A DNA stretch of 64,000 bases from Bilabrum cf. latius (Eukaryota). This document shows positions 586-64,000 of this stretch, piece by piece. Numbering within the stretch: the first letter of the stretch is position 1; every line of letters starts with the position of its first letter. Below the pieces are notes generated by a model. It ran no database searches and was not told where the DNA came from. It saw only the letters and a program-made list of their open reading frames with translations. The DNA lies in the NCBI GenBank assembly GCA_965178125.1, contig OZ237772.1, positions 496,001 through 560,000 on the forward strand, read 5' to 3'. The position numbers and the translations under genes are program-made.

Positions 586-3417
586 TCAGAACGGCCTCGC
601 CCCTCTCTTGCCCTTGCCCCCGCGCTTGCCCTTGCCCTTGGCACCGCCCCGGTACATCCCCACGCGATTCGCGCTCTGCCACTGCCTCCTCCCGCTGGCC
701 CCTGCCGCATCCGCAAGCCCTGCCCCCGCCCTCGCCTTGTCGCTCAGGCCCCCGTACCCGACGGCCGCCACTGCCTCATACTGCCGGCCCACCGCCCCGC
801 TTCCGCTCCCCGTCTGCGCCTCTGCCGCGGCCACCTGGCGAGCGTTGTTCGCGAACGACCGCAGCGGATCTGCACCGCCCATCCCCCCCCTGGCCCCCGC
901 CCCAGGGGCCATCTGCCTCCGCCTCTTGCGCTCCCGGCGACTGCCCCCCTGGTCCAGTCCGCCACCCGCCGCCTCCGCCGCGGCCTTGATCGAATCCGGA
1001 ATCAAATAGTCCGGCAGCTTGCCCAGGTGCGCCCGCACGGCAGCCCCCGCCCCCCTGGCTCCCTGCCTCAGTTTCTGCGCGAGGGCCTCCTTGTCCCTCG
1101 GGTTGGCCTCGAAGTGCGCCTGCAGCCTGGCCGAGTTGAGCATCTCCCTCCGGAGATCTTCCGCGCGGGCATGCCGCACCTTGGTCCTTGTTATGCTCTG
1201 CAGCACGTCGTCCACTCTGTACCTGAAGCCCTCCACCTCTCTCGCGTCGAAGGGCAGGGGCGCGGGCTGGGGCCCACCGTCCTCCCCCGGTGCCTGCGAG
1301 GCCCTCAGCTCCTCCAGCAGCGACTGCTCCGCCTTGTTCAGCGTTGTGACGAGTGAGACGGCGGCTCCGCTGGCTCCCCCGCGAGCCACCCTCCCGATCC
1401 TGTGCCTGTATGCCCGCGCGTCGGCCGGCATGTCCACGTTCACGACAGTGCCCACCCCCCTAAGGTCGATTCCACGGGCAATGCCGTATTCCGCGTCGGT
1501 GCCTGGACCCCTGCCCCCGCTGCTCTTGCCGTTGCCCCTGCTCCTGCTTGGCCCGAATCGCTCTTTCTTCTCCTCGTCCTCCTCTAACTCAGCGCGGGGC
1601 CTCTTGCGGCCAGCCGATGCCTTGGGAGCCCCGGACTTGCCGCCCCCCTCCCCCTCCCCCTCCCCCTCCTCATCGTCATCGTCATCCTCATCATCGTCGT
1701 CATCATCCTCCTCATCGTCATCGCCAGCATCCTCCTCATCGTCGTCTCCCTCGCTTCCACTCTGTTCCCCCCCATCGCCTTTCGCGCCGACAGCCTCCTC
1801 CTACTCCTCCTCTTCGTCGCTTTCACTTTCACCTTCACTTTCACTTTCGCTATCACTTTCACTTTCGCTATCACTTTCGCTGTCGCTGTCCTCCTCTGCC
1901 CCTCCCAGCGCCCCATCGGTGGCCACAAGGTAATCGAACATGCCCCGCTCAAACTCGCGGAGCACACGAAGCCTAGAGTTGGCAGGAAGTTCGCCGTGGA
2001 CAGCGGCGCACGGCACACCAAAGGCCTCCAGTAGCAGCCGCACCCTGTAGCACTCGTCAGTGTCTTTCACGAACAAAATCGCCCTCCCGCTGATGAGCCG
2101 CAGCTTGATCAGCGAGAACAGAAGCAGCGGCTTGTCCCCCGGCCGCACCTCGATCGCGTACTGCGCCAGCTTCCCGTCAGTGGGCGCGTCCTCCAGCCTC
2201 AGGACCGCGGGCGCAGTCAGCACGAGCTTCCTGAGAGCGTCCAGCTCCGTGGTCATTGTGGCAGACACGAGCATCCTCTGGCACCCCCGAGGGACCCACT
2301 CGGCCAGCCGAGCCATGGCCCCACCGTGCCCGAACGACAGGACCGCGTCAGCCTCGTCCACCACCAGCACCTGCAAGTGCCGCAGGCAACCGACCAGCGA
2401 AGCAGCGGCCTCTGCCCCGCTGGGCAAAGCCGCCGCCGCATCGGCTCTATCCTTCGCCTCCTGCTCAGCGTCCTCGTCGCCCGCCTTGAGCCGGGCCCTG
2501 AGGGCGGCCTTCTGCGCCCGCCTGGCCTCCTTGCCCTTGGCTGCGTCCAGCGCGCGCTTGCCCCGGTGAGTGAAGGCGTCGGGTCCCACCTGCAGCATCT
2601 TGCCCTTGGTCCTGCGCTGACGAGTGCGCTTGGCGTGCCTCTCGGCAGCCCGCACCAGCCGGCCCGGAGTGGCCACGATCACGTCGGGGCACTCGTCCAG
2701 CAGGTCCATCTCCTCGGATGGGGTCTGCGAGCCGTCCAGGGCCGCGATTCTGAGCACGTCCTGGCAGTAGTGCGCCAGTCGGGCGAGGGCCGCTCTGGTC
2801 TGGGCCACCAGCTCCCGTGTGGGGGCGAGGACGGCAGCGAGGATGCGGCGGGTGGGGGCGGCGCCCAATGTGCCGGCGCCGGAGGAGGAGGAGGAGGAGG
2901 AGGACGCAGCCGTACTGGAAGCCGCGGATGAAGAAGATGATGCCAGCTCGCCGCCGGCTCCTGCTGCGGCCGCTGCGTCTGCCTTTGCCTGCAATACCCG
3001 CTAGAGAAGGGGCAGCCCGAACGCTGCGGTTTTGCCGCTGCCTGTGCTCGCCCGTACCACTAGGTCACGCCCACTCAGTGCCAGCGGCACGGCCTACGCC
3101 TATACTAGAGTAGGATGAACCCACCCGATGAACGCCACTGCCTTGGTCAACCGTGAATCCAGTCCTGCAAGTGCGAAAAGCAGCGAGAGTTGCAGTTGGT
3201 GCTTTCAGCGATGAAACAATGCAGTACTTGCGATTGAGGCATTAAGGTGATGCGCATGATACAAATTTAAGAACAAAAGGGAAGATAAGAATGTGATCTC
3301 ACCAAGCTCGAGGGTAGCGAAGGTCTTCTCCTGGTCAAGCAATCGGGTGTTTACGGTCGTTCCCCGGGCAGCCGCATCGGTTGCGCCGACCTAATCTCCA
3401 GTTTTCACAAGGGACAT
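586..3417 (-). CDS. DDX56: DEAD-box RNA helicase, DDX56/Dbp9 family (2 exons: 3417-3303, 3164-586; TAG read as Gln)
   Basis: Q-motif [15 protein letters not shown], motif [52 protein letters not shown], and C-terminal [16 protein letters not shown]...LPDYLIP typical of Dbp9. In-frame TAG at 3391, 3100, 3094, 3001 and 1801. Intron 3165-3302 (GTGAG...TGCAG). Ends TGA at 586. Confidence 0.92.
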
Positions 3418-3584: not shown

Positions 3585-4472
3585 TCATGCCGCGTCACTA
3601 CCTTCTCTCGATATTACTTCCCTTCTCCAATCCTCCAGTCCGATCGCGTTCACCTGCCCAGCGAGCGCCTGCCCCGCCCCTCCAGCCAGCGCCTCGGCCA
3701 CCCCGGCCCCCCCCTCCCCGATGTGGGGCAGCCACGGAGGCATCTCGCGAACCATGCCACCGGCGGGGCCTCCTCCCTTCCGCACCCCCTCCCGCAGGCC
3801 CAGTGCCAGCGTTGCGTGCAGGTCGCCCCCGTGGGCCTTAGTTCTCAGCTGCTCCCCGCCTGCATCGCATTGCGCTGGGCTGCCCTCGGGGCATCGTCCC
3901 AAGGGGAGATCGCCTGCCCATGCGCTGAACGGGGGCACGCCTGGTGTGAAGTCGTGCACCGTCACGTTCTCCCACCCCATGAATGTGCCGAAGGGGGTCA
4001 CCTTGCGATTCAGGCGCACCGGTGTCTGGAGGGTGCGGTCGATCTCGAGCGAGACAGAGCCCATCACGATCGGGCCCAGGTCTTCGTGCCACGTGTGCCT
4101 CTGAATCTTGCCATCGTTCAGTGTTTCGACAGCATCGCTATGGGCGCTGCCCTCAGGGTTGACGACCATGGAGAAGGGCAGACTGGCTCGCTCAGCAGCA
4201 ATCTAGCAGGAAAAGGCACACTTCTTCGGTGACTCCAGGTGAAAAGCTGTCGCCGCACCGTCCTGCTCGTATTTATAAACACTAATTCCCTTGCTAGACC
4301 AATATGCCACAGTCTCCGGGCTCCAATACATTGAAATGTTTGCGTGGGCCTGCAGCGTGGGAGCTCCCGCAGTCATGCGAACATTTGCCGTAAACATCTC
4401 GGGCGGCTGCCATGCAAAACAATGGCAGAGAGACATAATTGCTACTACTATCGCTAACACATGCGGTTGCAT
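3585..4472 (-). CDS. Secreted protein of unknown function (possibly ependymin-related fold), paralog of the 9408-10360 gene
   Basis: Signal peptide MQPHVLAIVVAIMSLCHCFA. ORFs 4203-4472 and 3585-4169 are in one frame, joined by TAG 4203-4205. Ends TGA. Shares WxEDLGPIVM...RKxTPFGxFxGWENVT with the second copy. Confidence 0.75.
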
Positions 4473-4615: not shown

Positions 4616-7600
4616 ATGAAAATATTTCTCGTTGTAGCCACCTTAGCTTCGATCGCGTATCGAGCATATGGAACGGAAGGGATTGCCTCTGGTCGACCGG
4701 TTTCGCTGCACGCACCCCTCCCACCGACAGAGGTAACGGAGCCTGGAACAGTATCCCAGGAGAAACCAAGTAGGTACAATCGAGCGCTCCGAGCATCTAG
4801 CATTGCTCGGAATGCCGTGCCAGTGCCATCTCAGGTGCTGCATCACACGGACCCTAAACGGCAGCTCCTCCTAAGGCCCGATGCTTTCTTCAACGGCGGC
4901 TCGAAACCCTACGGCGCCGTCAGGCTCGAAATTCGAGAGCAGGCAGCGCCAGGCGCAAACTTCTCGTACGTTTCCGGAACCGATGCATCAGCGCTGGGGC
5001 CGAATGTGACGGACCGATTCAACGCACCGGTTCGAGCCAGCCCGTTCGTGCACCTGGACCGGAACAGCTCACTGCTGAGCGCACAGCCTAGCGGTGCAGT
5101 AGCTCTCGTAATCGATCCATCGAATACCACGGCCCCAGTGAACGGCACGACCCGAGGGCCCGCCTCGCTGCAGCCCGTCCCCACCCTGGGGGTCACGTAC
5201 GAGCTGCGGCTCATCGTGAGCGACTCCATGGGGGTGGAGAGCTCGCTGTCACTGTCTTTCGAGGTGATCCGAGACTGTCACATGGAAGATTGGGGTAACT
5301 GGACGGAGTGCACCGAGGTGTGTGGGGGGGGCATACAGAATCGATCCAGAGAGGTTGGCCTGCCCGCCATCGGGAGCCGCGCCGCGCAATGCGGAACCAC
5401 CTTCGAGTCGCGGTCCTGCGCGGGCGACGCGTGCGACTCTGGCGCCTTTGTGTCTCAGTCCGTCACCCTCGCTGGTCTCTCGAAGGAGCAGCTGCTGGCC
5501 CCCGGTGACCCCAGTGTCAGGGCGAGACTCCGGGTCGCCCAGGCCTCGTTGATGCCGCTGCTGCCTGGCGGAGAGCCGTACCCTCCCGAGCTCGTGCGGC
5601 TGTAGTCTATCGATGGAGTGGCCCACATCGACGATCCCATCGATGCGGTGAGGCGGGAGGTCCTGCAGTATGCTGCCTGGCTCGTCCAGTCGGCGGGGCA
5701 GCAGGCAGGTGGTGCCGGGGCATCTGAATCGCCCGACAGCTGTGCCGGGAATGCAACACAGTGCAATGCAACCTCCACCCGCCGCCGCCTGGATTCAACC
5801 GATATGCCAGACACAATTCCTGCAACTGCCGCCCAGCACGCGGCTCGCCGTGAGCTTGCACTGCTGCAGGCTGTTGCGGCGCAAGGCCCAGGAGCTGCAT
5901 TTGCAGTCAGCGAGGGTCACCACGTGAACAGCGAGGGTCACCACGTGAACAGCGAGGGTCACCACGTGAACACGCGGGCGAGGAGTCTGGGACTCGCGGT
6001 GGGCCCGGGCCTGCAGCGACTCGCTGACGGATTTGCCGCGCCCCTGAGCAGCTCATTGGGCCAGGGTGGGGCGCTTGCCACAGGGCAACAGCAGCTGCAG
6101 TAGGTGCAGAAGAGCTGGGCTGCACTCGTGGCCAACATGCGAATGAGCGGCACTGGAAGCGGCACGAACCACGCTGGCGAGGAGACAGCAGAGAGCGCAA
6201 GCTCCGGTGTGATGCGACACCTCCGGCTGCATGCCCTCAGGTTGCTGCAGGCGGGACACCAACAACAACAACAACAACAACAACAACAGGAGGAGGACAT
6301 GTGGCTGGAACCCGCGCATCCCGGGGCACGCAGTACGCCAGGGGAAACAGACGGCAGCGAGGCGCCTGCGGCAGATGCCAGCGCAGCGCACAGCGCGCGA
6401 CAGGCAAAGAATCTGCAAGACCCACCAGGCGGTAGTCGCGAGCGGCGAGGAAGAAATAGAGGAAGAGGAAGAGGCCGTCGGCTGCAGTCATTGTCGTCCA
6501 CTGCTAGCTCATCCTCGTCCTTGTCTTCGTCCCCATCTCTCCCCATCACGCTGCGAATGCTGCTGCCCCCCTCCCTGGGCCTCGACGAGTACTCCGCCGC
6601 TCGCTCCCTGGTGGGGGCCTGGGCCACCCCGGGGGTAGGCCTGGCCCCCGCCCTGAGGGCCTTGGGCTTGGTGCAGGCGGGGGCGACGCTCCTGCGATTG
6701 GACGTCACCTCGGCGGAGCAGAGGGCAGGGAACAGGAACATGAGGCCCATCGCGCTGCACGGCATTGCAGTGGTCCCACCCGCTGCGGCGGGGACCTCCT
6801 TGACCGGGGAACAAGGGACCCTGCTGGCTCTGGGGGGCTATGACCAGGACTCTCAGGACGTGCCGTCTGCCGTGCTGCTGCAGACACCGCGGGCCACCGC
6901 GGGCCGCACCTCCCAGCTGGCCCAGGTGTTTTCCCAATTCGGCTACCCCCCTGTAGGGGGCATCGATGTATCGGGTCTGTCGGTGATCGCGGCCAGCGCG
7001 AGGGCACTCAACACCACCACGCTGTCCTTCCGCAGCGACGGGGATGTCTCTGCCACGGGTGCTCTTTTGCCCGAGCAGGACGGAGCCACGGCTCCCAGGG
7101 TGCAGGTGGACCCACTCGAGGCCGTCCTGGTGACTGGCAGCGGCGGGCGGGTCCTTTTCCAGCCACCAGCGGGGAGGGGCTCGCCCCCAGCGGCGTACGG
7201 AAGGCTGGTGTACTCGCTGGTGGATAGGCTAGGAGCCGCCTCGGAGCCGGGGATCGTGTGGCTGGTGCCCCCGCACCGGCGACTCCTCTCGAGCTTCTTC
7301 CGAGATGGGACGGGCGGATGGACCGTGTCGGGGAACGGGCAGCGGGCCGGTGCAGACGCGGTGTCGCACCACTAGCTGCGGCTGGGCGAGGGCATGGAGG
7401 CGTACATTGTGGGGCAGGAGAGGTCGGTGAGTCCAGTGGGGGAGGGCGGGCAGGACGCTGATCTGTGGTACTTTGAAGCGCCTTCATCTGCGCTGGAGGT
7501 GCTGCGAGCCTTGCCATCGGGGATGCGGTCTGCGAGTGCGTCAGGACTGCTCGCAAGGAGTCAGGGTTTGGATGAGGAGAGCTCTGCCTTGGCCGAGTCC

Positions 7601-8396: not shown

Positions 8397-9266
8397 TCAT
8401 GTCCCGAACCCAGCTCCGGCCCTGCCCAGTCCCGTCCCTGCCCCCTCTTGATCCCCGCCCCCCAGGACGAGCTCCCTGAGGCTGCCCGCCCCACCTGCGA
8501 ATGGGTCCGTGACCAGATCCAGCTCGTGGGCCTATCCCCCCGCCGATGCACCTGCACCAGCACCTGCACCTGCACCTGCACCGCCAGTGGCCTGTGTCGC
8601 CGATGCAGAGGCAGATGACGAGGAGGAGGCCGCTCCCGCTCCCGCTCCCGCCCCAGCACCGGCACCGGCACCGGCATCGCCATCGCTCGTTGCGGCAGCA
8701 GTCGATGGTGCGCGCAGCCCAGCAGCGGCCTCGGTCTCAAGTTGAACCAGCCGGTCTGCGGCCTAGCTTGCTTTTTGCTGGTCTCTGTCTCGAATCAATT
8801 CGGCGATCGCTGCTTTGGTGGCAAGCTCCAGCTGTTCTGTCACTGGAGCGAGCTCCTCTTTCAGGTCCCATGCAGGGCGCCTAGGGGCAAGCTTGATGGG
8901 ATCCAAAGCATCCAATTGATCCGGGGCTACTCGTTCCATTGCCTGCAAGGTATGCATTAGTCATGAGAAAGGGGACAAGAAGGCCTCAGCCGCACACAGT
9001 ATAATGGACACCACGATTCATGCAGCCGGGCTTACTTTCTCTGCTAGCCTGGCTTCATCAGACCTTGTCTACGATCTTTCACTTTCGACCAGTTGCTTTG
9101 CAGCCATAGATGGCAAAGCTATGCTACTGTGAGACCTGGTGCCATCCATGCCTGGCTGCTCACTGGTCTAGTCACTCTACTCTTTCTGAACCCCCTCACT
9201 GGAGCCCTAGACCTACGATGGCGTGTAGTTCTTAAATACGACCCGGCGTTTCTTCGTTGCACTCAT
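8397..9266 (-). CDS. CCDC12: CCDC12/Cwf18-like splicing factor (2 exons: 9266-9036, 8942-8397)
   Basis: N-terminal VFKNYTP and C-terminal LAPRRPAWDLKEELAPVTEQLELATKAAIAELIRDR match Cwf18 motifs. Intron 8943-9035 (GTAAG...TGCAG). About 7 in-frame TAG. Ends TGA at 8397. Confidence 0.8.
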
Positions 9267-9407: not shown

Positions 9408-10360
9408 ATGTACTCGTGAGGAATGAATGAAAGTAATACTTGGTACCACGTGACCGAATCATGTGGCTAAATAACACCGTACATGTCTAGGGCGGCACGA
9501 TCACCACATCCAGGATCTTACCCTTCCCATCCCTTGGTTCTAGTCGTATTATGATCCAAAATGAATCCATAGAACTGTCTTGAGAATCTTTTAAGTCATT
9601 TGGACGATTATTCGTGTTTCCATTTCGCAGTATGGTCGCTGTGCTGAGCTCCGCTGCTGCCATTGCAGCAAGCGTGCCTACGTTCCCACCGTCTTTCACG
9701 GCGCAAGAATTCATTCGAGTGCAGCAGACAGGCCAGCCGCTGCAGGAGGGCAACTAGACCAGCTACTGGTCGCAGGGCGCCGTGAAGAACGCCACGACCT
9801 ACACGGGCACCCGCGGCACCACGGTGTACCTTTTCGACGAGGAGGGCTCCTTCGGCCACGGAAACGTATACGTTGCCTTTGCAGACCGTTGCCAGTACTA
9901 CTGCGGCAATGGAATGCTTCAGGAGGACCTCGCAGACACGCTGGAGGCCCCCGAGTACCTGCACAATGCCAAGTTCACCGGGTCTGGCACATTTGACGGC
10001 ATCAAGGTCAACAACTATGCTTGGAACGAGGACCTCGGCCCCATCGTGATGAACTCGCTCACTCTGGCAGTGAGACCCGACACTGTAGCACCCGTGCACC
10101 AGACCCGCAAGCTGACCCCGTTCGGAAACTTCATCGGCTGGGAGAACGTGACTTGGAACTCGTTCGTGCCAGGCGAGCCCCCGGCCAGCGCCTGGAACAT
10201 CCCCAACAAGGAGTACTGCGAGCGAGGTAGCGAGGCCCAGTGCCAGCAATTCGAGACCAAGACTGTGCGCGTGGAGGGGCAGGAGGTGCGTGTCCCGCAC
10301 AGCCCCCGGCAGGTGCTGCTCAACCTCGAGGCCAGGTGGGAGCAGAACGGGTCCCTGTGA
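9408..10360 (+). CDS. Secreted protein, paralog of the 3585-4472 gene (proposed 8-nt first exon 9408-9415, intron 9416-9630; alternative start ATG 9632)
   Basis: Hydrophobic N-terminus MVAVLSSAAAIAASVPTFPPSF. In-frame TAG at 9755. WNEDLGPIVMNSLTL...RKLTPFGNFIGWENVTW. Ends TGA. Confidence 0.75.
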
Positions 10361-10604: not shown

Positions 10605-10826
10605 CCCTGCCTCACTGTGCACCCATGGCCCCCTTGCCCTGCTACCCCTCAGGGTCCCTACCCTGCCTCACTGTGCACCCATGGCCCCCTTGCCCTGCTA
10701 CCCCTCAGGGTCCCTACCCTGCCTCACTGTGCACCCATGGCCCCCTTGCCCTGCTACCCCTCAGGGTCCCTACCCTGCCTCACTGTGCACCCATGGCCCC
10801 CTTGCCCTGCTACCCCTCAGGGTCCC
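10605..10826. repeat. 56-bp tandem repeat x4 overlapping the last codons and stop of the RP2-like gene
   Basis: Unit CCCTGCCTCACTGTGCACCCATGGCCCCCTTGCCCTGCTACCCCTCAGGGTCCCTA starts at 10605, 10661, 10717 and 10773; no spacers. Confidence 0.95.
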
Positions 10827-23735: not shown

Positions 23736-25751
23736 ATGTTAAGGCCCTGTCGCTCGTGGAGAAGTGCTGCCACCCGCACGATTCGCGCCGGTGTGGTCGC
23801 AACTGGCTCCCTGGCTGCCACGGCTCGGATTTCATCGTGCGGAGCCCCGAAGTCTGGATCCTCTGGGCGTTGTATGTCAACTAGTGTGCTAGGATAGGAT
23901 GGCATCGCGCTGGGGGTGGATAGTAGCACGCAGGGCGTCAAGGTGGTGGCAATCGATTCCGCGCTCAAGATCGTCCACAGTACTGCGCTCCGATATGACG
24001 ACGACCTGCCTGAGTATGGAACCACCAATGCAGTGCACGAGGGACCGGAGCCGGGTGAAGTCACCCAGCCGACGGCCATGATCGCGGACGCCATAGATCG
24101 CGCCTTTATGCGCATGAAGGAGGAGGGTTTCCAGTTCGAGAGGGTGCGAGCAGTCAGCGGGAGCGGGCAGCAGCACGGGAGTGTCTACTGGGCTCGTGGT
24201 GCGGACGAGGGACTGGCCGCGATGGACCCGGGGCAGTCCGTGGCTGAGCAGCTGCCCGCGCTGCTGGCCCGTTCCCGCAGCCCGATCTGGATGGACTCCA
24301 GCACGCGGCCGCAGTGCAGTGCACTCGAGGAGGCCGCGGGGGGCCCCGAGGCGCTGGCTAGAGCCACGGGGTCCAGGGCATACGAGCGCTTCACGGGGAA
24401 CTAGGTGGCTCGGCTTGTGCGCGGGGGAGGTGCCCCTGGGTCCAGGAGCAGCAGCTCGGGTGCTGCTGGATCGGAGGGGCAGGGGCAGGGGCAGGCCGAT
24501 GGAGATGGCGCGGCTTTGGCGGATCGACTGTCCCGCGTGTCTCTGATCTCCTCCATGGGGGCCTCCTTGCTGGCGGGGCATGTGGCACCAATCGACTACA
24601 GCGACGGGAGCGGGATGAACCTGCTGGACATCCGGGGAACAGGGGACGGGAGCCAGGGCATCGAGTGGCTGGGCGAGGCACTGGAGGCCTGCGGGCCAGA
24701 GGGGGGCAACGGGGCGGATCGGCTGCGGGCGTGGCTTGGGGATCCGGTGCCCTCTCATGCCCCCGTTGCGGGGGAGGTGTCTGCCTTCTGCAGGGAGAGA
24801 TACGGATTCGGAGCCGATGTCACGGTGGCGGCGTGGTCTGGGGATAACCCCAACAGTGTGGCTGGCCTGAGGCTGTCACAGCCGGGTGAAATCGCCGTCT
24901 CGCTGGGCACCAGTGACACAATCTTCGGTATCGCGGGCGCGAGGGACGCTGCTCCGGGCCTTGAAGGACACGTGTTCGTGTCTCCCAGCGACCCAGCCTC
25001 CCGCATGCTGATGCTGTGCTACAAAAACGGGTCTTTGACACGGGAGCGAGTGCGGGACATGCACGCGGGTGGGTCCTGGGAGCACTTCAACGCCGCTCTG
25101 GAGAGGACTTCCCCAGGGAACAACGGGACCATCGGGTTCTTCGTGGACCACCCGGAGATCACGCCCCCGATCCAGGCCACTGGAGACAGGCTCTTTGACG
25201 GGCAGGGCAGGCGGGTGGACGTGCCCGTGGCGCCGGATGGCTTGCCGGCCGAGAGCCGCAAGCTGGCGGCCCCCATGCCGGGGGCCAAGGGAGAGATGGT
25301 GTCCCTGGAATCAGTGGGGGGCAGCGATGCCGTGGTGCGAGCCGTGGTGGAGTCCCAGTTCCTCAGCATGAAGGCACACGGGGCGGCGCTGGGCCTGCAC
25401 TCGCCCAAGCGAGTCCTCGTCACAGGCGGTGCCAGTGCCAACGAGGCAGTGACCCAGGTGCTGGCGGACGTGCTGGGGGCACCCGTGTACGCTGCTGACA
25501 CTGCCGACTCGGCGGCTTTGGGAGCAGCCTACCGTGCAGTGCACTCTAGGGCGTGCGTGCGGGAGGGCAATTTCGTTCCCCTGGAGCAAGCCCTGAGGGA
25601 GTGCGCGGCTGCAGCGGGGCGGGACGGGGAGCCGTCGGTGCGTCTGGTGGCCAAGCCCCGGCCCTAGGCGCAGCTGGTGTATGCTCAGATGGAGGAGGCC
25701 TTCAGGGCGAGAGAAGCCGTGGTGATGGGGGAGAAGCCAGCCAGGGGGTGA
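23736..25751 (+). CDS. XYLB: Xylulokinase (eukaryotic XYLB type, FGGY family), ~671 aa, with presequence-like N-terminus
   Basis: LGVDSSTQGVK, AVSGSGQQHGSVYW, SPIWMDSST, TGSRAYERFTGN*, SLISS, IDYSDGSGMNLLDI, GDNPNS, SLGTSDT, LCYKNGSLTRE, TGGASAN, SAALGAA. TAG at 23895, 24402 and 25665. Ends TGA at 25749. Confidence 0.93.
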
Positions 25752-27566: not shown

Positions 27567-29333
27567 TCAGCCGTACACGACCTGCGCCAGGTTGCGCTCG
27601 TACAGCTCCTGCTTACCCGACTTGATGGCTGGCTCCCCGTTGTCCTGCACATACTTCCTCAGGTCCTCCAAAGTGACTCCCTCACCGCCGGTCTGCTCCA
27701 CCTTGGCACCCAGCCCATCGTCCCAGGACGAGTACCTCTGCTTCACGTCATCCAAAGTGACGCCCTTCTCGCGCATAGCCGCCGCATTCTTAAGACCAAG
27801 AGCCCACGCATCCATTGCCGCGATGTGCGCGATGAAGATGTCCTCCAAATCGGTGCTCTCCCGCCTCACCTTGCAGTCGAAGTTAAGGCCGCCAGAGTGC
27901 AGCCCGCCCTGCGCCAGCACGTGCAGCATCGACAGCGTCGTCCACTTGGCGTCCTGAGGGAACTCGTCCGTGTCCCAGCCGAGCAGCTCGTCTCCGGTGT
28001 TCGCGTCGATGGACCCCAGCATGCCGTACTGCGCCGCGATCATGATGTCGTGGTCGAACTGGTGCCCCGCCAGGGTGGTGTGGTTGGGCTCGATGTTGAG
28101 CTTGAACTCATTCTGCAAGCCGTACTGGTGCAAGAAGCCCATCGTGGTGGCGGCGTCGTAGTCGTACTGGTGCTTCATGGGCTCCTTGGGCTTGGGCTCC
28201 ACCAGCAGCTGGAAGGAACCGCCCAGGTCGTTCCTGCGCTGCACCACCATGCGGAAGAATGCAGCCGCATGGTCCAGCTCCCTCTTCACGTTGGTGTTGA
28301 TCGAGGACTGGTAGCCCTCTCTGCCCCCCCAGAAGACGAAGTTCTCCCCGCCCAGCTTGGTGTTCACCTCGAGCATCTTGTTCACGTTGGCGCCAGCGCG
28401 CGCGTACACGTGGAAATCGGGGCTGGTCATGCCTCCGTTCATGAATCGAGGGTCCGAAAACAGGTTGGTGGTGCTCCAGAGCAGCTTAGTGCCGGTCTCC
28501 TTCTGCTTGTTGTGCAGATACCCTGCCATGTGGTCCACGTTCTTCTCATAGTTGGACAGCTTGGCGTCATAGGGGGCCATGTCAGCGTCGTGGAAGGTGT
28601 AGTACTCCACGCCCAACTTGGAGAACAGCTCGAAGGCTGCGTCTGCGATGCGCTCGTACTCCCCCACGGTGTTGCTGTCGTCGTTCCAGGGCCTCTCCAT
28701 CGTGGGCATGCCGAAGATGTCGCGCCCCACCCAGCGGAAGGTGTGCCAGTAGCTGCGTTGGTAGGCAGAACGTACGGCATGTTGCAAATATTATTGACTT
28801 GTTATTGCAACTGGTTTGCACGCTCAGTAAGTCTTCGTTCAACCAAGCCACGCAGCAGGCACTCTACGGTAACAGCTGGATCTTGGGCACCAACATGCAA
28901 CTTCGGTCGATCCGTGCGCAGGGCTGATGCCGAGCGGGTACATGCCCTCACCATACTGCAAATCGCATATGCTCCTTCATGCTCTGCGGTTGTAAGGTGG
29001 AAAGAAACATCGAAGTGGACGAATGTGCAAGTAAATCGCAACGCCGGCGTGCTACGCGTCACGTGACGCGAGGCAGGAATGGCCTATTCATGCACGCCGG
29101 CCCGCTTGGCTCTCTTGAGAATTAAAGCAACATACCTTTCCTTCAATGATGGCTTCGGGATCGTAGTGGCGGAATGCCAAGGGGTTTGACGAGGACGCGC
29201 CCTCGTACTTGATCTGGCCGATCGAAGGGAAATACTGCCCGGATGACATCATGCGGATGGCTGAACGCCCACCGCTAACCATTCCCGAACGTGTCGACAG
29301 TCTAGAAGCAACAGACCGAGCAGCACGCATCAT
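27567..29333 (-). CDS. xylA: Xylose isomerase, class II, ~471 aa (3 exons: 29333-29136, 28983-28952, 28752-27567), with presequence-like N-terminus
   Basis: YFPSIGQIKYEG...NPLAFRHYD, MKEHMRFAVCYWHTF (restored by splicing), FHDADMAP, VFWGGREGY, EPKPKEPMKHQYD, LNIEPNHTTLAGH, GSIDAN, GWDTDEFP, GGLNFDCKVRRES. Introns 28984-29135 and 28753-28951. Ends TGA; no TAG codons. Confidence 0.96.
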
Positions 29334-29528
29334 GCTTGGGCTTTCTGTGCTGATGAAGTGGCGCAATCGTAAACTCGGATCTCGCTTTTTGGTAAGGTGC
29401 ACTTTTGGATGGCCCAGCGTGTTGCCGCATTGGTCATCCTGGAGGATGCTGCTGCTGTGCACTGAGTGTCACGTCGACACATTGGTTGCGAAACGCAAGC
29501 ATGCTAGTATTTCCCCCAATGCACTCAC

Positions 29529-39544: not shown

Positions 39545-39992
39545 GGGGAGAGGGCCTAAACTTGAGGACTGGGTAAGCTGCTCGGGATCATGTCTAGCCG
39601 AGAGTCCATGTGATCTAGATCCTGATCGGGATGTGTGATCCTGGTGTGCGCCTGAGACTGGAGCAGGTTCATGTAGAGTAGATCAATTGAGGAATGGTGC
39701 AGCATAGGTAGTCGTAAAGTGCAGGGTAAATCAGTGCTTGCAACAATCAATGAATCAATCGCTTGATCCGGTCCAGGCACATACGCCGGGCAGCAGGGCA
39801 GTTCGGCCACACAAGCCCATCCAAGGGCCGGGGGCCGGCTCACCCACGGCGAGGCGCGCGCTTAGATGCAACGATCGTGCAGTGCACGTTCCTGGTCCCC
39901 GGCAACCCTTGCCCCACCCCCTCAGGAGTGGATGCCCGGGCGCGAAGAAGGCATCATGCAAAGCGTCCAGCTGTCCAGTCCGCACTGCGCGC

Positions 39993-44549: not shown

Positions 44550-47094
44550 ATGTCGCTGGTGAGCCAAGGTGCCCTCTGCATCAGTCGTTGTCGGCCAAGG
44601 CTCATTTCCAGCTTGATTGTCGAAACAAATACCTGCTCATCGAATGCATGCTTTGCTGGAACTTGAGTTAGCTTTATGTGCACAACACTTGCATAAACTG
44701 CAGAAACTCATCGCTGGGGCAGCAGACACCCGGACAAACATGGTGAGAAAGATGCTGCGCCTGCAGATTGCGCCAGATCTGGATTTTTTGGCCGTGTGTT
44801 CTATCATCACTCGTGCTGCTGAAGTCGTATGCTCCTGATAGTCGGCCTTCGCACCCCTCGTCCCGCAGGTCAAGATCGCGGCGTCGCTTGCCGGCGTGAG
44901 CCTCGACGTGCAGGTGAAAGGTGAGGCGGGGCTGCGGGACCCCGAGGTAGCTGGAGCCCACATTCAGACCCTTCCCATGTTGGTAACAAGGCATGGCGCC
45001 CTGCCGCGGACGGATGCCATCTTGCGGTACGTGGCTGCTCTCCGCGAGGACGCCGGGCTTCTGGGCGAGGGCCCCTGGCAGCAGGCCCAGGTGGACCAGT
45101 GGCTCTCGGTGGCCATGGGGGACGCAGCGCAGGCTGCCGAGGCCTTCTTGGAAGGCTCTAAGGCAGGGGGCAAGGACGGTGCCAGCGTGTGCGCCGAGGC
45201 CACTCGCGAGCTGGTTCTCCTCGTCTCGATGCTGGACGCAGCGGTTGAGGCCAGCACCTTTCTCGTGGGCGAGCGACCCACACTCGCAGACGTGGCGCTC
45301 TGCTGCGCCCTATCCCCGGTGGTGGGACAGGGCAGGGCCATCGAGCCGCAGCCCGCACAGGCCCGCGTGCCCTCTTTCCTCCGGTGGTACCGCACCTGCC
45401 GGGCCCTGCCAGCATGTGCAGAGCACCTGGGCCAGGACGACTCGGGGCACCCCCTCGCCCTCGCTGGACATGGACCCGCTGTGCCCGCCGCCTCGGGGGC
45501 GGGCGCCGATGCACCAGCCTCCGTTACTGCGGCCCCCCGTGCCCCTGCGAGCTCTGGGTACCCCGGGGTGCCCCCGGAGGCCTGCGCCTCAGCTGGGGCC
45601 CTTGAGCCCTCCCCCGAGCTGCCTGCCCCCCGCTTCAACAGGGGTCGGCTGAGGGTGAAGGAGGTGCTGGCGGGTGGCAAGCAGCTGCTGGGACAGTCCA
45701 TCACGGTGGCCGGCTGGGTGCGCACCAAGCGGGGCCAGAAGAACCTCGCCTTCGTGGAGGTGTCGGACGGGAGCTGCGCCGCCGTGCTGCAGGCAGTGGG
45801 CTCGCCCGACTCGTACGAGGCCTTCTAGCAGAAGCAAGGCAAGGACGGCGCGGGGTCGCTGGAGAGGGACCTGGCGGAGGTGCGGACAGGGACTTGCGTC
45901 AGGGTGCAGGGCCGTGTGGTGGCCAACCCCAAGCCAGACAAGCCCGTGGAGCTGGAGCTGCAGGACCTTAGGGTGGTGGGCGGCGTGCCCGAGAAAGGAT
46001 ACCCCTTGGCCAAGGCGCGCATGAAGCTCGAGACGCTCAGGGAACACCAGCACCTCCGCATGCGCAGCCGCATTGGGGGTGCTGTGGCTCGCATGCGCAA
46101 CGCGCTCGCATTCGCCACGCACCGCTTCTTTTAGGAGCGCGGCTTCTACTACGTGCACACGCCGCTCATCACCGCAAGCGACGCGGAGGGCGCCGGTGAG
46201 ATGTTCCGGGTGAGCTCGCTCGACGCAGAGGAGCCCCCGCGCCTGCCCAACGGCCGCGTGGATTTCTCCAAGGATTTCTTTGGGCAGCAGTCGCACTTGA
46301 CTGTGTCGGGTCAGCTGCAGGTAGAGTCGTTTGCGTGCTCGATGAGCGACGCCTACACCTTCGGGCCTACTTTCAGGGCCGAAAACTCCCACACCTCAAA
46401 GCACCTGGCCGAGTTCTGGATGATCGAGCCAGAGATCGCATTTGCAGACCTGGAGGCAGACATGGACCTGGCCGAGGACTACCTCAAGTTCTGCACGGCA
46501 TACGCTCTCAAGCACTGCGGAGACGACCTGGCCACGTTCGAGATGGCATGCGAGAAGGGGCTGCGAGCCAGGCTGCAGGCCGTGGTGGACGCGCCTTTCA
46601 AGCGCATCACGTACACGGAGGCGCAGGAGCTGCTGTGCGACAAGGCTCTGCAGAAGAAGCACAAGGCCAAGTTCAGGGAGGCGCCCGGGTGGGGCAAGGA
46701 CCTGGCCAGCGAGCACGAGAAGTTCCTCACCGACAGCGTGTTCAAGTGCCCCGTGGTGGTCACGGACTGGCCCAAGTCCATCAAGGCGTTCTACATGCGC
46801 GCCAACGAAGACGGGAAGACCGTCGCAGCCATGGACGTGCTTGTGCCCAAGATCGGGGAGGTGATCGGCGGGTCTGCCCGAGAGGAGCGGCTGGACGTGC
46901 TCAAGGCGCGCATGGCCGAGGCGGGCGTGGAGGAGGAGCACCTGGGTTGGTACATGGACCTCAGGAGGTTCGGATCTTGCCCGCACGCAGGCTTTGGGCT
47001 TGGATTCGAGCGGCTGCTCATGTACGTCACCGGCATGGAGAACATCCGTGACGTGATCCCCTTCCCCAGGTACCCTGGCCATGCGGCTTTCTGA
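44550..47094 (+). CDS. asnS: Asparaginyl-tRNA synthetase (bacterial/organellar-type core) with N-terminal GST-like domain (exons 44550-44558, 44704-44742, 44869-47094)
   Basis: [111 protein letters not shown]-terminal AILRYVA...AQVDQWL...[13 protein letters not shown] is GST-like. TAG at 45826 and 46132. Ends TGA. Confidence 0.93.
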
Positions 47095-47344: not shown

Positions 47345-47514
47345 GACACTCACACAGCCTCAGCTCCCTGTGCCTACTAGGACACCTCGCCACCCCCACC
47401 GACACTCACACAGCCTCAGCTCCCTGTGCCTACTAGGACACCTCGCCACCCCCACCGACACTCACACAGCCTCAGCTCCCTATGCCTACTAGGACACCTC
47501 GCCACCCCCACCGA
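47345..47514. repeat. 56-bp tandem repeat x3 overlapping the last codons and stop of the 47462-50686 gene
   Basis: Unit GACACTCACACAGCCTCAGCTCCCTRTGCCTACTAGGACACCTCGCCACCCCCACC at 47345, 47401 and 47457. Confidence 0.95.
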
Positions 47515-59543: not shown

Positions 59544-61567
59544 TCAGAGCTCCGCGTGCTCCTGTAGGCGTGCATCGTGCTGCTAGATCCACTTGCGGAT
59601 GTACTCGAGCTCTTTCTCGCGGACCAGTTTGACCGAGGGCGTGTCAAGTGGGTTGGAGAAGAAGAGGTCCATGTGGTGTCCGCCCACCTGCAGAGGAGAG
59701 GGTACTGGGGCAGCGCGCACAGCATAGAGCATTGCGGCGCAAGGCAGTGGGGAGAGCGGTTGGCAACAACCCGACGATGCCGAAGCACGACTAAAGGCAA
59801 TCTCACCTGGATGTACGACACAAGGTCCCGGTCAAGGCTGATGTTGGCATGCGGGCCCCCGCCCCGCCATGGGTCGTAGGACCCCTGTGAGAAGAAGATG
59901 TTGGAGGCAGCCTGCAGGCGCCTGCCCCCGAAGCTGATCTGCGCCCAGTCCGATCTGGGAGTGACCCCCCACTGGTCCTGGCAGCCCTACGAGAAGGATG
60001 CAAAGTCCCATGGCACGGGCCAAAACATGTCCAGGGGTGGGCCGCTCTGGTTCTGCGGCATCACCATCTCCGTGCAGGCTAGGTAGTCCCACAGCAGCCC
60101 ATCCCGCTGAGTCTCCGGGTTGGGGGCTGCGTCCCAGTCATAGCACGACAGCGATCCGGTGTAGTTGAACCACGCACCCACGGCGTCCGCCAGGCGCTCC
60201 AGCGACTGACGCTGGTCCTTGGGGGCTGATCCATCGCCCACAGCACCCTGACACATGCCCTTGATGGGGAAGGCCGGCAGGATGCCCTGCAGGGTAGAAA
60301 GCGGAGGTGCGGTGCGATGAGAGGGTTGGTGATACTACGCGTGCGCGAGGAAACCAGCAAGCAGACGCAGAGCATCAAATCAAGCGATCTCACTTGGCCA
60401 TTCAGCATGTAGCTGCGATGAAAAACCAAAAGTCAAGGTGAAAGGATGCACAAATGTGGGCAACAGACACAGCAGCAGGGACGGTTCCACACTCCTAATG
60501 GATAGCCCAAGCCTCACCTGCTTGGGTAGGGGTAGCTGCCCATGGCTAGATAGGAGGGTGCGTTGGTGGCCCAGTAAGCCAGGCTAGTTGCATCTCCGGC
60601 GGTCTTGATGGGCTTGCACAGGCGCATGCCCTCGCTGACCTCCTGCCTGCCTGACTCGGTCTGGCCCAGGTCCAGGATGGCCTGAAAGCCTGCGTGCATG
60701 GCCCCTTTGCACCCAGGGACGAATGAGTCCGCCGTGTCGGTCACGATCCCGTTGTAGTAAGAGGGCTCCACGGCGGGGGTCTCGAAGGGGAAGGCCCAGA
60801 TGGGAGCTGAGCCAGCGATGGCGCCGTCGAATTGGGCTGGGTACTTGATGCGCGCCCATGAGGCCAGCATGCCACCATAGGAGCCTCCGAATGCAATTAC
60901 GGCGCTGTCGGGTGCATTCCAGTCTGCTTTCTTGTGCAGCAGCAGCCTGGCGTAGTCAGCGAGTGCCTGTTCGGCGCTCAAGTAGTTGGAGTGCTTGACC
61001 GAGTCCTACGGACTGAATGGGAGGCTCGCACCAAAGTACCGATGCTCGGCGAACACAAGAAGGGCGCCAAACTGTTCGGCATTCTCCCACATGAGACCAG
61101 TGTGGTTGAGACTGCGGAAAATGGCACAGCGGCAGGCGGTATTTATGGATGTACGTCGTGGCTGACTTGACAGCTGGTCAGTCAAAGCCGCCATAGAATA
61201 CTCACTAGAGGGTAACATCAGCCTCATTTCCGGTATAAAACCAGATAGGGCCTCCTTGTTTCTAGAATTGATCGCAAACGAAGACGCGCTGCTTGTACGT
61301 TGTCTACTTCGACCCGGCAGGAACATCAGTGGGCGCCTTCCAAGTGAAGTGGTCTAATGGCTACTCGAACCACTCGAGAGAGCAGTTCTGTGGGCCGACC
61401 GGCGTTGCAATCTTCCCAGTGCCGGCGATGTTTGGGAAAAACTCAGTCGATCTGCTCGGTACCTTTGGAGCTCGATGGCTCAACAGCGGGCGGCTACCAG
61501 TGGCCCATGCAGGTGATAATAGTACTGTAGCTGATGCTACGCTAAAAAAAGTTGAAAAGGTCCTCAT
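59544..61567 (-). CDS. PRCP: Lysosomal Pro-X carboxypeptidase / peptidase S28 family (5 exons: 61567-61206, 61111-60518, 60412-60394, 60286-59807, 59687-59544)
   Basis: Signal peptide; WFE*PLDHF; GPIWFYTGNE; AEHRYFG; catalytic GGSYGGML, YDPW and HHMDL; LACTEMVMP; four GT-AG introns restore the frame; ends TGA. Confidence 0.92.
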
Positions 61568-61701
61568 TTGGAAGGTTTGTGGTGCGAATCCTGGCTCGCT
61601 TTAGAAAGCGGAACCAAAGCGCGGCGCCGAAGCTACATAGATCCGGGATCCTTGGATGTCCCAAGTCTACTTCTAAGCTTAAAAAGAAAAAGTCAAAAGC
61701 C

Positions 61702-64000
61702 TTAATCTGCCTGATCATCCTATCCAACTCCGCTGTACAGGTATGCCAGCACTGACCGCGGCACTACCACACTCCCAACAGTACCGGCGTGCAGCCACTC
61801 CGGCAGCAGAGCATCGGGCAGGCGGTGGCACCCGAACCTCGCATACCACTCCCTCGCGTACAGGACCAGCAGCAGCCCCGTGCCCACGATGAGCATCATC
61901 CACACAAAGGTCGAGCTGGTGCCCCTGGCAGTCTTGAGCTGCGCGAAGAACACGCCGGGTCCCCCGAACATGAGGAACAGAATCGGGTAGAAGCACCCCA
62001 TGGCGAACGTCACGATCCACTCGTGCAGCAGATTGGAGATCAAAAAGGTCAGCATCAGCGCGTCAAACCGCGAGAGACCGTCTCCGCCGTGGCGGGCGGC
62101 TGTAGCACCTGCCTTGGGCTAGACTGCTGCCGTGTCCGCCTCCTCCTCCGCCCCGCCTGCGCCCGTGCCACTGCCTCTTACCTGCCGCTTGCCTGCTCTT
62201 TTACCTTTACCTTTGCCCTTTGCCCCCCCACCAGCGCCTCCCTCTTGTGCTATCTCAGCCAGGCCGCCAATGTCTGCCCCCTCGTTCGCTTCGACTTCTC
62301 CGCTCGCCCCTGTGATGGCCCGCCGCCCAGCCTCCGATGTGAACCGCATCAGGTCGAAGTAAATGTACGTGCGAATGTGCTGGCCCACCACCACATTCCA
62401 GAGGCGATAGAACTGTCCAAAAGATGCGGCATTCCACCAGTCCTGCGAACAAGGAAGGACGGGAGCAGAGGCAGGCACGCACACATGCAAGTTGCCGCAA
62501 TGCGGTCCATCCATGTCACACACAAACGGGCGGAAGGCCCCAATAACACAGCCCGCAGGCAGACACTCACACTCGCAAACTGTCCTCGATCTCCGAACCG
62601 CAGCAGCTCGGCCCACATGTTGAGCCACGAGTGCAGCACTCCGTAGAACATGAGCACCAGCAGTAGGGAAGCGGGCAGCATAGAGTGGAAGACGCTGAGC
62701 ACGAACGCCTGCAGATCTCCCGGATACAAAGCAGTGTGCTTGAACTGCGGAGCCACCGCCACCACGAAGAGAAGGTACACGAACCCGACCACCAGTAGGA
62801 AATTGAGGCCGTGCTTTCCCGCCTCGACCCATCTCACGTCGGGTGCCAAGCCGGGGTATCTGTCTCTGTACACGAGCGTGGGCGCGAAGGAGAAATACAT
62901 GTACCTGCCAATTTCTCGTTGCACGTCCCCCACATCGATGCGGGGCACCAGCACGTGCTCTTCCGTGACCCCTTTCTTCCGGGCCCAGCCAGGGATGTAC
63001 CGGGCCAGCGCGCTGTCGCCGTACAGCCCGTACAGCATCTTCTCCCTGAAGTACGCGTGCGCCTTCATCAGAAAACGGGCCATCTCGGCCTGCAAAATCA
63101 CCGCGCTAGGGGGTGGCAGCGGGCTGTCTGCCACGGCCAGGAAGTACAAGCAGACAGCGGTGGGCACCAACACCTGCAGGCCCTGCCCGATGCAGTAGAG
63201 CGGGAGCCACACATGCCAGCTCCAACTGAACCTCCGGACGCCCTGCACCAGCAGGATAGGGAAGAAAGATAGCACAAACTGCGCTACCCAGCAAGGCGCC
63301 ACGACTCCGACGTGTCCGAAGCCCCACACGAGCAGCCCAATGTCCGGTGTCAGGTCCGGCTCCACTGGCACCGCGGTCAGCTGAGAGGCCACCTGGCTCC
63401 ACTGCAGCGCAGGCGCAAGCTGTGCCCCGCCCTCATTCTCCGTGGCATTCAGCCCGTGGGTGGATGCATGCGCCGCCCAAGCCCTCCCCGAGCCCCCGCA
63501 GGCCCAGCCCTGGTCCGATTCCCCCGGCCTCTCCGCCTGCCGCTGCAGCTGAAAGGCCGCCTGCACCACCATGTTGATGCCCAGCCACGCCATGCCTGCC
63601 ACCGCCATGCTGTAGATCGTGCGGTAGTCCCGCCGCCCCTCCAGCATGGTGGTCAGCAGCGAGGCCCGGGGCCGGAAGGCAGGCTGCGACCATGCTCTCC
63701 TCAGCCGGGCCTGTCTGGCCGCTTCCTGCTGGGTCTCGGACAGCTGACTGCCCGAGGCCCGGGGCTCTCTCCTCTCCATGCCCGCATCGTCCTCGCCCAT
63801 GCCCTCCGCGCGGTCCAGCTGCGTCTCTAGCGAGGCTCCCAGGTCGCGCACTGCCTCCGCATGCCTGGCCAGGTCTCCGTGCAGCGATGTGCGCAGGGCC
63901 AGGAGCTCGTCTCGGAGAGAGTCCACGGCGCGCAGGTGAGCATGCACGCCCTAGCGATCCAGAAGGACTCGGGAATCTTCTGCCGTGGTCGCGGAGTTTG
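61702..64000 (-). CDS. SOAT1: Sterol O-acyltransferase (SOAT/ACAT, MBOAT family), 5' end outside the window; intron 62443-62570
   Basis: FRPRASLLT, EMARFLMKAHAY, YFSFAPTLVYRDRYP, HSWLNMWAELLRFGDR...DWWN, FYRLWNVVV, SNLLHEW (catalytic His), LYAREWYAR. TAG at 63951, 62119 and 61720; first non-TAG stop is TAA at 61702. Confidence 0.9.

Follow-up and report, generated by a model that had tools for sequence, protein, structure and literature searches.

We conclude, with a probability that we put at about 0.87, that the organism behind the window (the whole 64-kb stretch of DNA analysed here) translates its nuclear genes with NCBI code table 15, in which UAG encodes Gln and both UAA and UGA are stops, that UAA is a genuine and rare terminator, and that the sterol O-acyltransferase (SOAT) gene is translated through a UAG at 61722 and ends at a UAA at 61704. 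We draw this reading from codon counts, the reading frame and the ends of orthologues, and the positive evidence for termination at UAA comes from one orthologous gene, SOAT. It agrees with a first-pass annotation of the same DNA, which had described UAA as still a rare stop, and UAA ends one of the 25 gene models.

UAA is not usable as a Gln codon in this organism, a conclusion that rests on the whole window. The 25 gene models were built from open reading frames, frame scores and splice joints, with some 5' ends placed conservatively and a few upstream exons omitted, and their 17,230 codons include 597 CAG, 102 CAA, 102 TAG and no TAA. Were TAA decoded like TAG, its expected number, taken from the ratios of A-ending to G-ending codons, would be 17.4 (CAR), 13.7 (TTR), 21.0 (GAR), 24.5 (AAR) or 9.1 (CTR), and 26.2 when computed gene by gene; across these estimates the probability of finding none ranges from 1e-4 to 4e-12. 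The earlier caveat that GC bias could partly hide TAA therefore fails, since between 9 and 26 are expected and none is seen, the most conservative ratio still predicting about nine. TAA accounts for 0/801 Gln codons (upper bound about 0.4%; Fisher P = 6e-7 against the CAA:CAG ratio), and CAA is used freely, as the first-pass annotation had pointed out from a poly-CAA tract near 6260, which we find as an in-frame CAA run at 6256–6288 (+). Because the open reading frames are bounded by TAA or TGA, the TAA count is partly circular, and we therefore applied a six-frame context test that retains triplets flanked on each side by 20 codons of coding-like sequence. At a threshold of 2, 0/310 TAA were retained, together with 46/847 TAG, 32/1484 CAA, 4/310 TTA and 4/1397 TGA; at a threshold of 1, four TAA passed, two of them antisense to genes and the other two immediately after TGA stops. 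No coding-like segment was found to run through TAA in the 11,579 unmodelled bases of the window, which are 53% GC. The claim that no in-frame TAA lies inside coding sequence thus stands, as does the proposal drawn from it, that UAA is not a Gln codon and that the code is UAG-only rather than UAR=Gln; the internal use of UAA as Gln that would mark table 6 was not found in 17,230 codons. A possible small gene or exon outside the models, at 29146–29390 (+), starts at ATG and has an early TAG.

Alignments indicate that UAG is read as Gln in the window's organism and also in L001, an orthologous SOAT locus from a metagenome. TAG occurs in 20 of the 25 models; its abundance had been recognized before, and the earlier figure of about 110 internal TAG is corrected to 102 by the exact count. 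The evidence from conserved Gln positions consists of a handful of sites within the window: TAG at 3100–3102 (-) falls on the Gln of the DEAD-box Q motif in a DDX56-like helicase (Gln in 3/3 alignments shown), TAG at 24402–24404 (+) on the Gln of FTGNQ in xylulose kinase (human XYLB, 4bc2), TAG at 46132–46134 (+) in AsnRS on a column with Gln in 74/120 homologues, and TAG 61363–61361 (-) on the conserved Gln before LDHF in a prolyl carboxypeptidase/DPP2-like gene (PRCP; 59544–61567 (-), five exons, six TAG and a TGA end, with four introns spliced in runs X5–X7). Exchanges are seen in SOAT as well, where the window's CAG at 62380–62382 (-) is TAG in L001 (837–839) and the window's in-frame TAG at 62119–62121 (-) is Gln in two proteins of a close relative, P0278 and P0280. 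Other TAG sites lie in variable columns, facing K, L, A, T and G in Thermus ValRS, R/H in Rpn10 and W in DPP2, and many CAG sites likewise align with various residues in such columns. An assignment of UAG to Trp, based on the one PRCP site opposite W of DPP2, was dropped, the column being gap-ambiguous against PRCP (3n2z) and TGG being used normally. Another AsnRS protein, P0275, is 99% identical and has Gln at both TAG sites; we do not count it as independent because the code used by its gene caller is unknown. In viral contigs, 49 AsnRS loci were found at 33–52% identity, none of them from the window's lineage, and in-frame TAG was absent from the AsnRS match in the 38/49 viral loci checked (near-duplicates left out). 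One giant-virus contig (L028, 10001–11389) has a single in-frame TAA within its AsnRS match, which probably reflects a disrupted gene or misassembly. A probable upstream exon of a cwf18-like gene, at 9135–9230 (-) and outside the codon counts, carries four TAG and no TAA in 32 codons. The window also holds xylose isomerase-like sequence at 27567–28750 (-), less than 5 kb from xylulose kinase (23874–25751, +), the two catalysing consecutive steps of xylose use, and two paralogous proteins of about 200–240 aa that have a common motif and no Pfam match (3588–4201, -; 9632–10357, +).

The SOAT gene, of the MBOAT family, lies on the minus strand with its 5' end open at the window edge. An exon at 62571–63998, delimited by its open reading frame and by codon-by-codon alignment with L001, is followed by a 128-nt GT..AG intron (62443–62570), which is spliced out in contigs of X5, X6 and X7, retained in X1 and present at the same place in L001, and by the last exon (61705–62442), whose 246 codons include two in-frame TAG and which matches human SOAT1/2 (E 2.6e-16) and Pfam MBOAT. 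Because the spliced contigs lack the 128-nt intron, the frame of the last exon is fixed. Its 3' end reads GGA TAG GAT GAT CAG GCA GAT TAA GGC TTT TGA, which confirms on the minus strand the order TAG 61722–61720, TAA 61704–61702 and TGA 61695–61693 given in the first-pass annotation; numbered from a conserved PRS motif, the TAG is codon 11, the TAA codon 17 and the TGA codon 20. The five codons between TAG and TAA (61705–61719, encoding DDQAD) score as coding, at a level that only 7% of UTR stretches reach, and the ten codons past the TAA score -8.4, which is UTR-like, in a T-rich 3' flank (61643–61701) that is transcribed at least to 61643. The TAA at 61702–61704, the sole TAA gene end in the window, is probably the SOAT stop, and the TGA three codons on (61693–61695) is probably an incidental triplet of the 3' UTR. 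The gap from this stop to the ATG of PRCP is only 134 nt. Between two conserved blocks, SOAT has a lineage-specific low-complexity insert of about 85–105 aa (62080–62330, -; 900–1220 in L001), which is missing in P0121 and P0127 and shorter in P0279.

The presence of these triplets in RNA can be judged from contigs of X5, X6 and X7, three samples of two studies, which lack the SOAT intron and the four PRCP introns. We treat these runs as RNA because introns are spliced out there and not in X1; no listed run is registered as RNA, and splicing is the sole evidence for it. One spliced X6 contig covers 63444 to 61643 with zero differences and spans the TAA unchanged, and the TAA is therefore part of the spliced RNA consensus, at least 59 nt from the contig end; among the contig matches listed, only this one covers the TAA, the piece from X7 stopping at 61721. 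No sign of RNA editing was seen at 61702–61704 in the X6 contig, a kind of consensus from which rare variants are dropped, and the spliced contigs show no differences over PRCP and SOAT. Contig ends do not equal transcript ends; the 3' flanks contained in the contigs are about 130–190 nt for AsnRS and PRCP. The PRCP contigs of the three spliced runs all start at 61550, at a stretch of T located 17 nt in from the ATG of the presumed signal peptide (61550–61567, -), which is probably an assembly break, and joints in three runs delimit a PRCP micro-exon of 20 nt (60393–60412, -).

Orthologues bear directly on the question of which triplet ends SOAT. The Logan proteins P0278 and P0280, both from a close relative with a diverged insert region, have Ser at codon 11 and the tail DDQAE, with residue 16 as their last, and so the relative appears to terminate exactly where the window has TAA. 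They are predicted proteins without a visible stop triplet, and their caller would stop at TAG as well; since they conserve the tail, the tail in the window is most probably protein and TAG 61722 (61720–61722) is read through. L001, the sole confirmed locus among 319 pattern matches in metagenome contigs, matches the window at 93% of the C-terminal 119 residues of SOAT and is saturated at synonymous sites (61/187 fourfold sites identical to the window). It has TAA at codon 11 and again at codon 17 (1599–1601), its first TGA lying 14 codons past the first TAA. Base identity to the window is 21–24/30 before codon 11 and 5–10/30 after it, and the residues between codons 11 and 17 are not conserved between the two. 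Since only two more TAA occur in the 183-nt 3' part of L001, the match at codon 17 would arise by chance in about 1–4% of cases, a post hoc figure. The coding region of L001 (486 codons, GC3 59%) has 8 CAA, 4 CAG, 1 TAG and 0 TAA, an absence which alone is not significant (about 2 expected). P0274, the second member of the L001 cluster, ends at the same residue as L001, P0279 ends 13 residues past PRS and P0121 ends 11 past it. Among distant SOAT homologues, 83/153 have a PRS-like motif, and 43% of these end within 10 residues of it, 35% at 11–16 and 22% later (median 11); because C-termini are too variable, these homologues do not discriminate between TAG, TAA and TGA as the end. Our search for longer SOAT proteins yielded only five, all distant, and pattern searches of genome contigs gave 285 matches for SOAT and 61 for PRCP, none of which was confirmed. 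The orthologues nevertheless appear to resolve most of the ambiguity that the first-pass annotation had noted at this site: the succession of TAA and TGA that it described stands, and the doubt is much reduced by the ends of P0278 and P0280 and by the TAA of L001 at the same codon. On a basis that is thin, namely one orthologous group (SOAT, in the window and in L001), UAA appears to mark a gene end defined by homology.

UGA is a stop in the window's organism. As had been stated for all gene models except SOAT, 24/25 end in TGA, and the TGA end of AsnRS coincides with the ends of P0001, P0002, P0007 and P0018; TAA ends 1/25 (95% interval 0.1–20%). Third-position and 3'-flank composition predicts that TAA should form about 0.16 of all TAA and TGA ends, or about 4/25, against the one observed (P = 0.06), and we attribute the rarity of TAA largely to composition, though there is a hint of an extra deficit. 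A comparable trend is described for mammals in the available passages of PMC9129041, TAA stops falling and TGA stops rising with GC3. TAG is not depleted near gene ends, where it forms 5/16 of the Gln codons within the last ten codons vs 97/785 elsewhere. In two unrelated genes, the last codons and the TGA stop lie within near-perfect 56-bp tandem repeats (10605–10826, four copies; 47345–47514, three copies), and in the repeat at 47345–47514 a Gln codon reads TAG in the coding copy but not in the copies downstream. TAA lies in frame two codons behind the TGA of the DDX56-like gene (580–582, -) and five codons behind that of an HSF gene (39557–39559, +).

It seems improbable to us that UAA is instead a weak, leaky or nearly unassigned terminator in a lineage en route to UAR=Gln, with an eRF1 shifted toward UGA, avoidance of UAA, and UAA ends that lean partly on a downstream stop. 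Such a state would account for the preponderance of TGA ends and the shortfall of TAA, for the TGA three codons behind the sole TAA (chance about 5%), for the two TAA in tandem in L001, and for a mild enrichment of in-frame stops within six codons behind stops (7 in frame vs 4 in the two other frames, P = 0.04; overall P about 0.04–0.08). However, the TAA deficit is not significant, a stop within three codons is found also behind 3/24 TGA-ended genes, the back-up TGA three codons past the window's TAA is not conserved in L001, and codon 17 has remained TAA despite divergence to saturation, which would hardly be expected of a poor stop.

We think it very unlikely that the code is one in which UAA and UAG both mean Gln (table 6, ciliate-type) with UAA extremely rare, so that SOAT would end at TGA 61695 and L001 at the TGA 14 codons past its first TAA. 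The two TAA of L001 would then face the TAG and TAA of the window as two aligned Gln, every frame examined soon reaches a TGA, and the ends of P0278 and P0280 could be a gene-caller artefact; yet a codon found at 0/801 would have to occur three times, only in an unconserved tail and twice at one position in two saturated species, with no conserved residues between the two sites and UTR-like sequence past the TAA, and with a UUA anticodon TAA would become an ordinary codon, expected to drift up like CAA. Ambiguous, context-dependent stop/sense codes have very short UTRs. That UAG is of this kind, read as sense inside genes and as a terminator close to the 3' end (the situation in Condylostoma and Blastocrithidia), with SOAT ending at TAG 61722 and the TAA serving as a back-up in the UTR, is scarcely credible: it would suit the first TAA of L001, placed exactly at codon 11 where conservation ends, and the end of P0121 at the median distance of the 83 homologues, but P0278 and P0280 have Ser at codon 11 and keep DDQA beyond it although their insert region has diverged, the five tail codons score as coding, other genes that run on to TGA often have TAG among their last codons, and the 3' flanks of AsnRS and PRCP are not very short UTRs.

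Considering a potential mechanism for UAG as Gln with UAA as a stop, we suggest, from established knowledge, that a tRNA-Gln(CUA) that arose from tRNA-Gln(CUG) would read UAG and be unable to pair with UAA, that tRNA-Gln(UUA) would be absent, and that eRF1 may have been weakened, or be outcompeted, at UAG while its recognition of UAA and UGA would be retained. The 64-kb window contains no tRNA gene or Rfam match and no eRF1 gene. In agreement, retention of UAA as a stop in Iotanema is said in the accessible part of PMC5304391 to require a CUA anticodon, which pairs with UAG and not with UAA, and a UUA anticodon would read both (passages of PMC11687900); the eRF1 of Iotanema has a T32G change in GTS that tracks the code, according to the portion of PMC9161772 at hand. 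The rarity of UAA at gene ends would follow mainly from the GC-rich genome (GC3 73% over the 25 models). With regard to SOAT, the stop at codon 17 after PRS may be ancestral in the clade, single changes may have moved codon 11 among Ser, Gln (TAG) and TAA, and a TAA at this codon in the L001 lineage would have created a new stop six codons early, leaving the old TAA behind.

The host appears to be a bicosoecid stramenopile (Bicosoecida) near Cafeteria or the Cafeteriaceae. The best named match of AsnRS is Cafeteria roenbergensis, at 61% identity, with further relatives at 90% and 99%, and in the AsnRS tree (45 rows, a single gene and sparse named taxa) the window and its relatives form a clade sister to Cafeteria, with support of 99/97 and a long stem. 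C. roenbergensis has a likewise GC-rich genome, of about 70%, and the passages available of its genome preprint (bioRxiv 10.1101/751586) mention a variant code for the mitochondrion only, UGA=Trp. No stramenopile nuclear reassignment is described in the passages seen of that preprint or of PMC13768787, PMC11412368, PMC12152300 and PMC10120064. More generally, our literature search, which left most subscription journals and supplements outside its range, found no nuclear reassignment in a bicosoecid or any other stramenopile.

UAA and UAG are almost always reassigned together. The assignments that we propose are those of Iotanema spirale (Fornicata), in which, as far as the available text of PMC5304391 goes, UAG is Gln and UAA and UGA are stops, UAG makes up about 8% of Gln codons, a minority as in the window (102/801 = 13%), and 104 genes end in UAA and 15 in UGA. 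That organism belongs to an unrelated supergroup and has UAA as its main stop, in contrast to 1 TAA and 24 TGA in the window (Fisher P = 4e-16). Table 15 is also given, in the passages of PMC11687900 at our disposal, for the phyllopharyngean ciliates Hartmannula sinica and Trochilia petrani, with Protocruzia tuzeti named as well; the first two resemble the window in assigning UAG to Gln and keeping UAA and UGA as stops, and in the type of evidence, conserved columns and gene ends. The same passages state that UAA terminates 86.9–98.3% of genes in recoded ciliates, and the authors argue that this dominance locks UAA as a stop, an argument not applicable to the window's organism because UAA ends few genes there. 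UAR=Gln is listed in them for ciliates, hexamitin diplomonads, ulvophytes, Streblomastix and Amoeboaphelidium; table 6 is like the window in that UAG is Gln and UGA ends nearly all genes, and differs in that the window's coding sequence is without TAA and a TAA marks an orthologous gene end. UAG-only Leu codes (rhizarian exLh, in the consulted part of PMC5304391; TARA phyllopharyngean MAGs, in that of PMC11687900) likewise decouple UAG from UAA and keep the UAA stop, whereas in the window TAG faces Gln columns and an orthologous CAG rather than Leu. Table 15 itself is therefore known, and in all its characterized cases, to judge from the passages of PMC5304391 and PMC11687900, UAA is the main stop; what would be new here is another supergroup and a reversed stop usage, with UGA as the main stop.

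Finally, it is conceivable, if unlikely, that this lineage stands between the UAG-only and the UAR=Gln codes, UAG having been captured, eRF1 favouring UGA, and UAA being rare, possibly leaky and no longer locking the code. If so, some relatives may have captured UAA, the species of the window and that of L001, which is more AT-rich, would represent two stages of a stepwise path that leads from the standard code to the most common variant among eukaryotes, and no variant nuclear code would have been reported in stramenopiles before this one. With UAA as a genuine stop, the decoupled code would be common to at least two species of different base composition (SOAT GC3 78% and 59%), with spliced RNA in public runs, and would make it possible to test directly what maintains decoupling, the anticodon geometry of the tRNA together with eRF1 or the usage of stop codons; annotation with the standard code and annotation with table 6 would both be wrong for these genomes.
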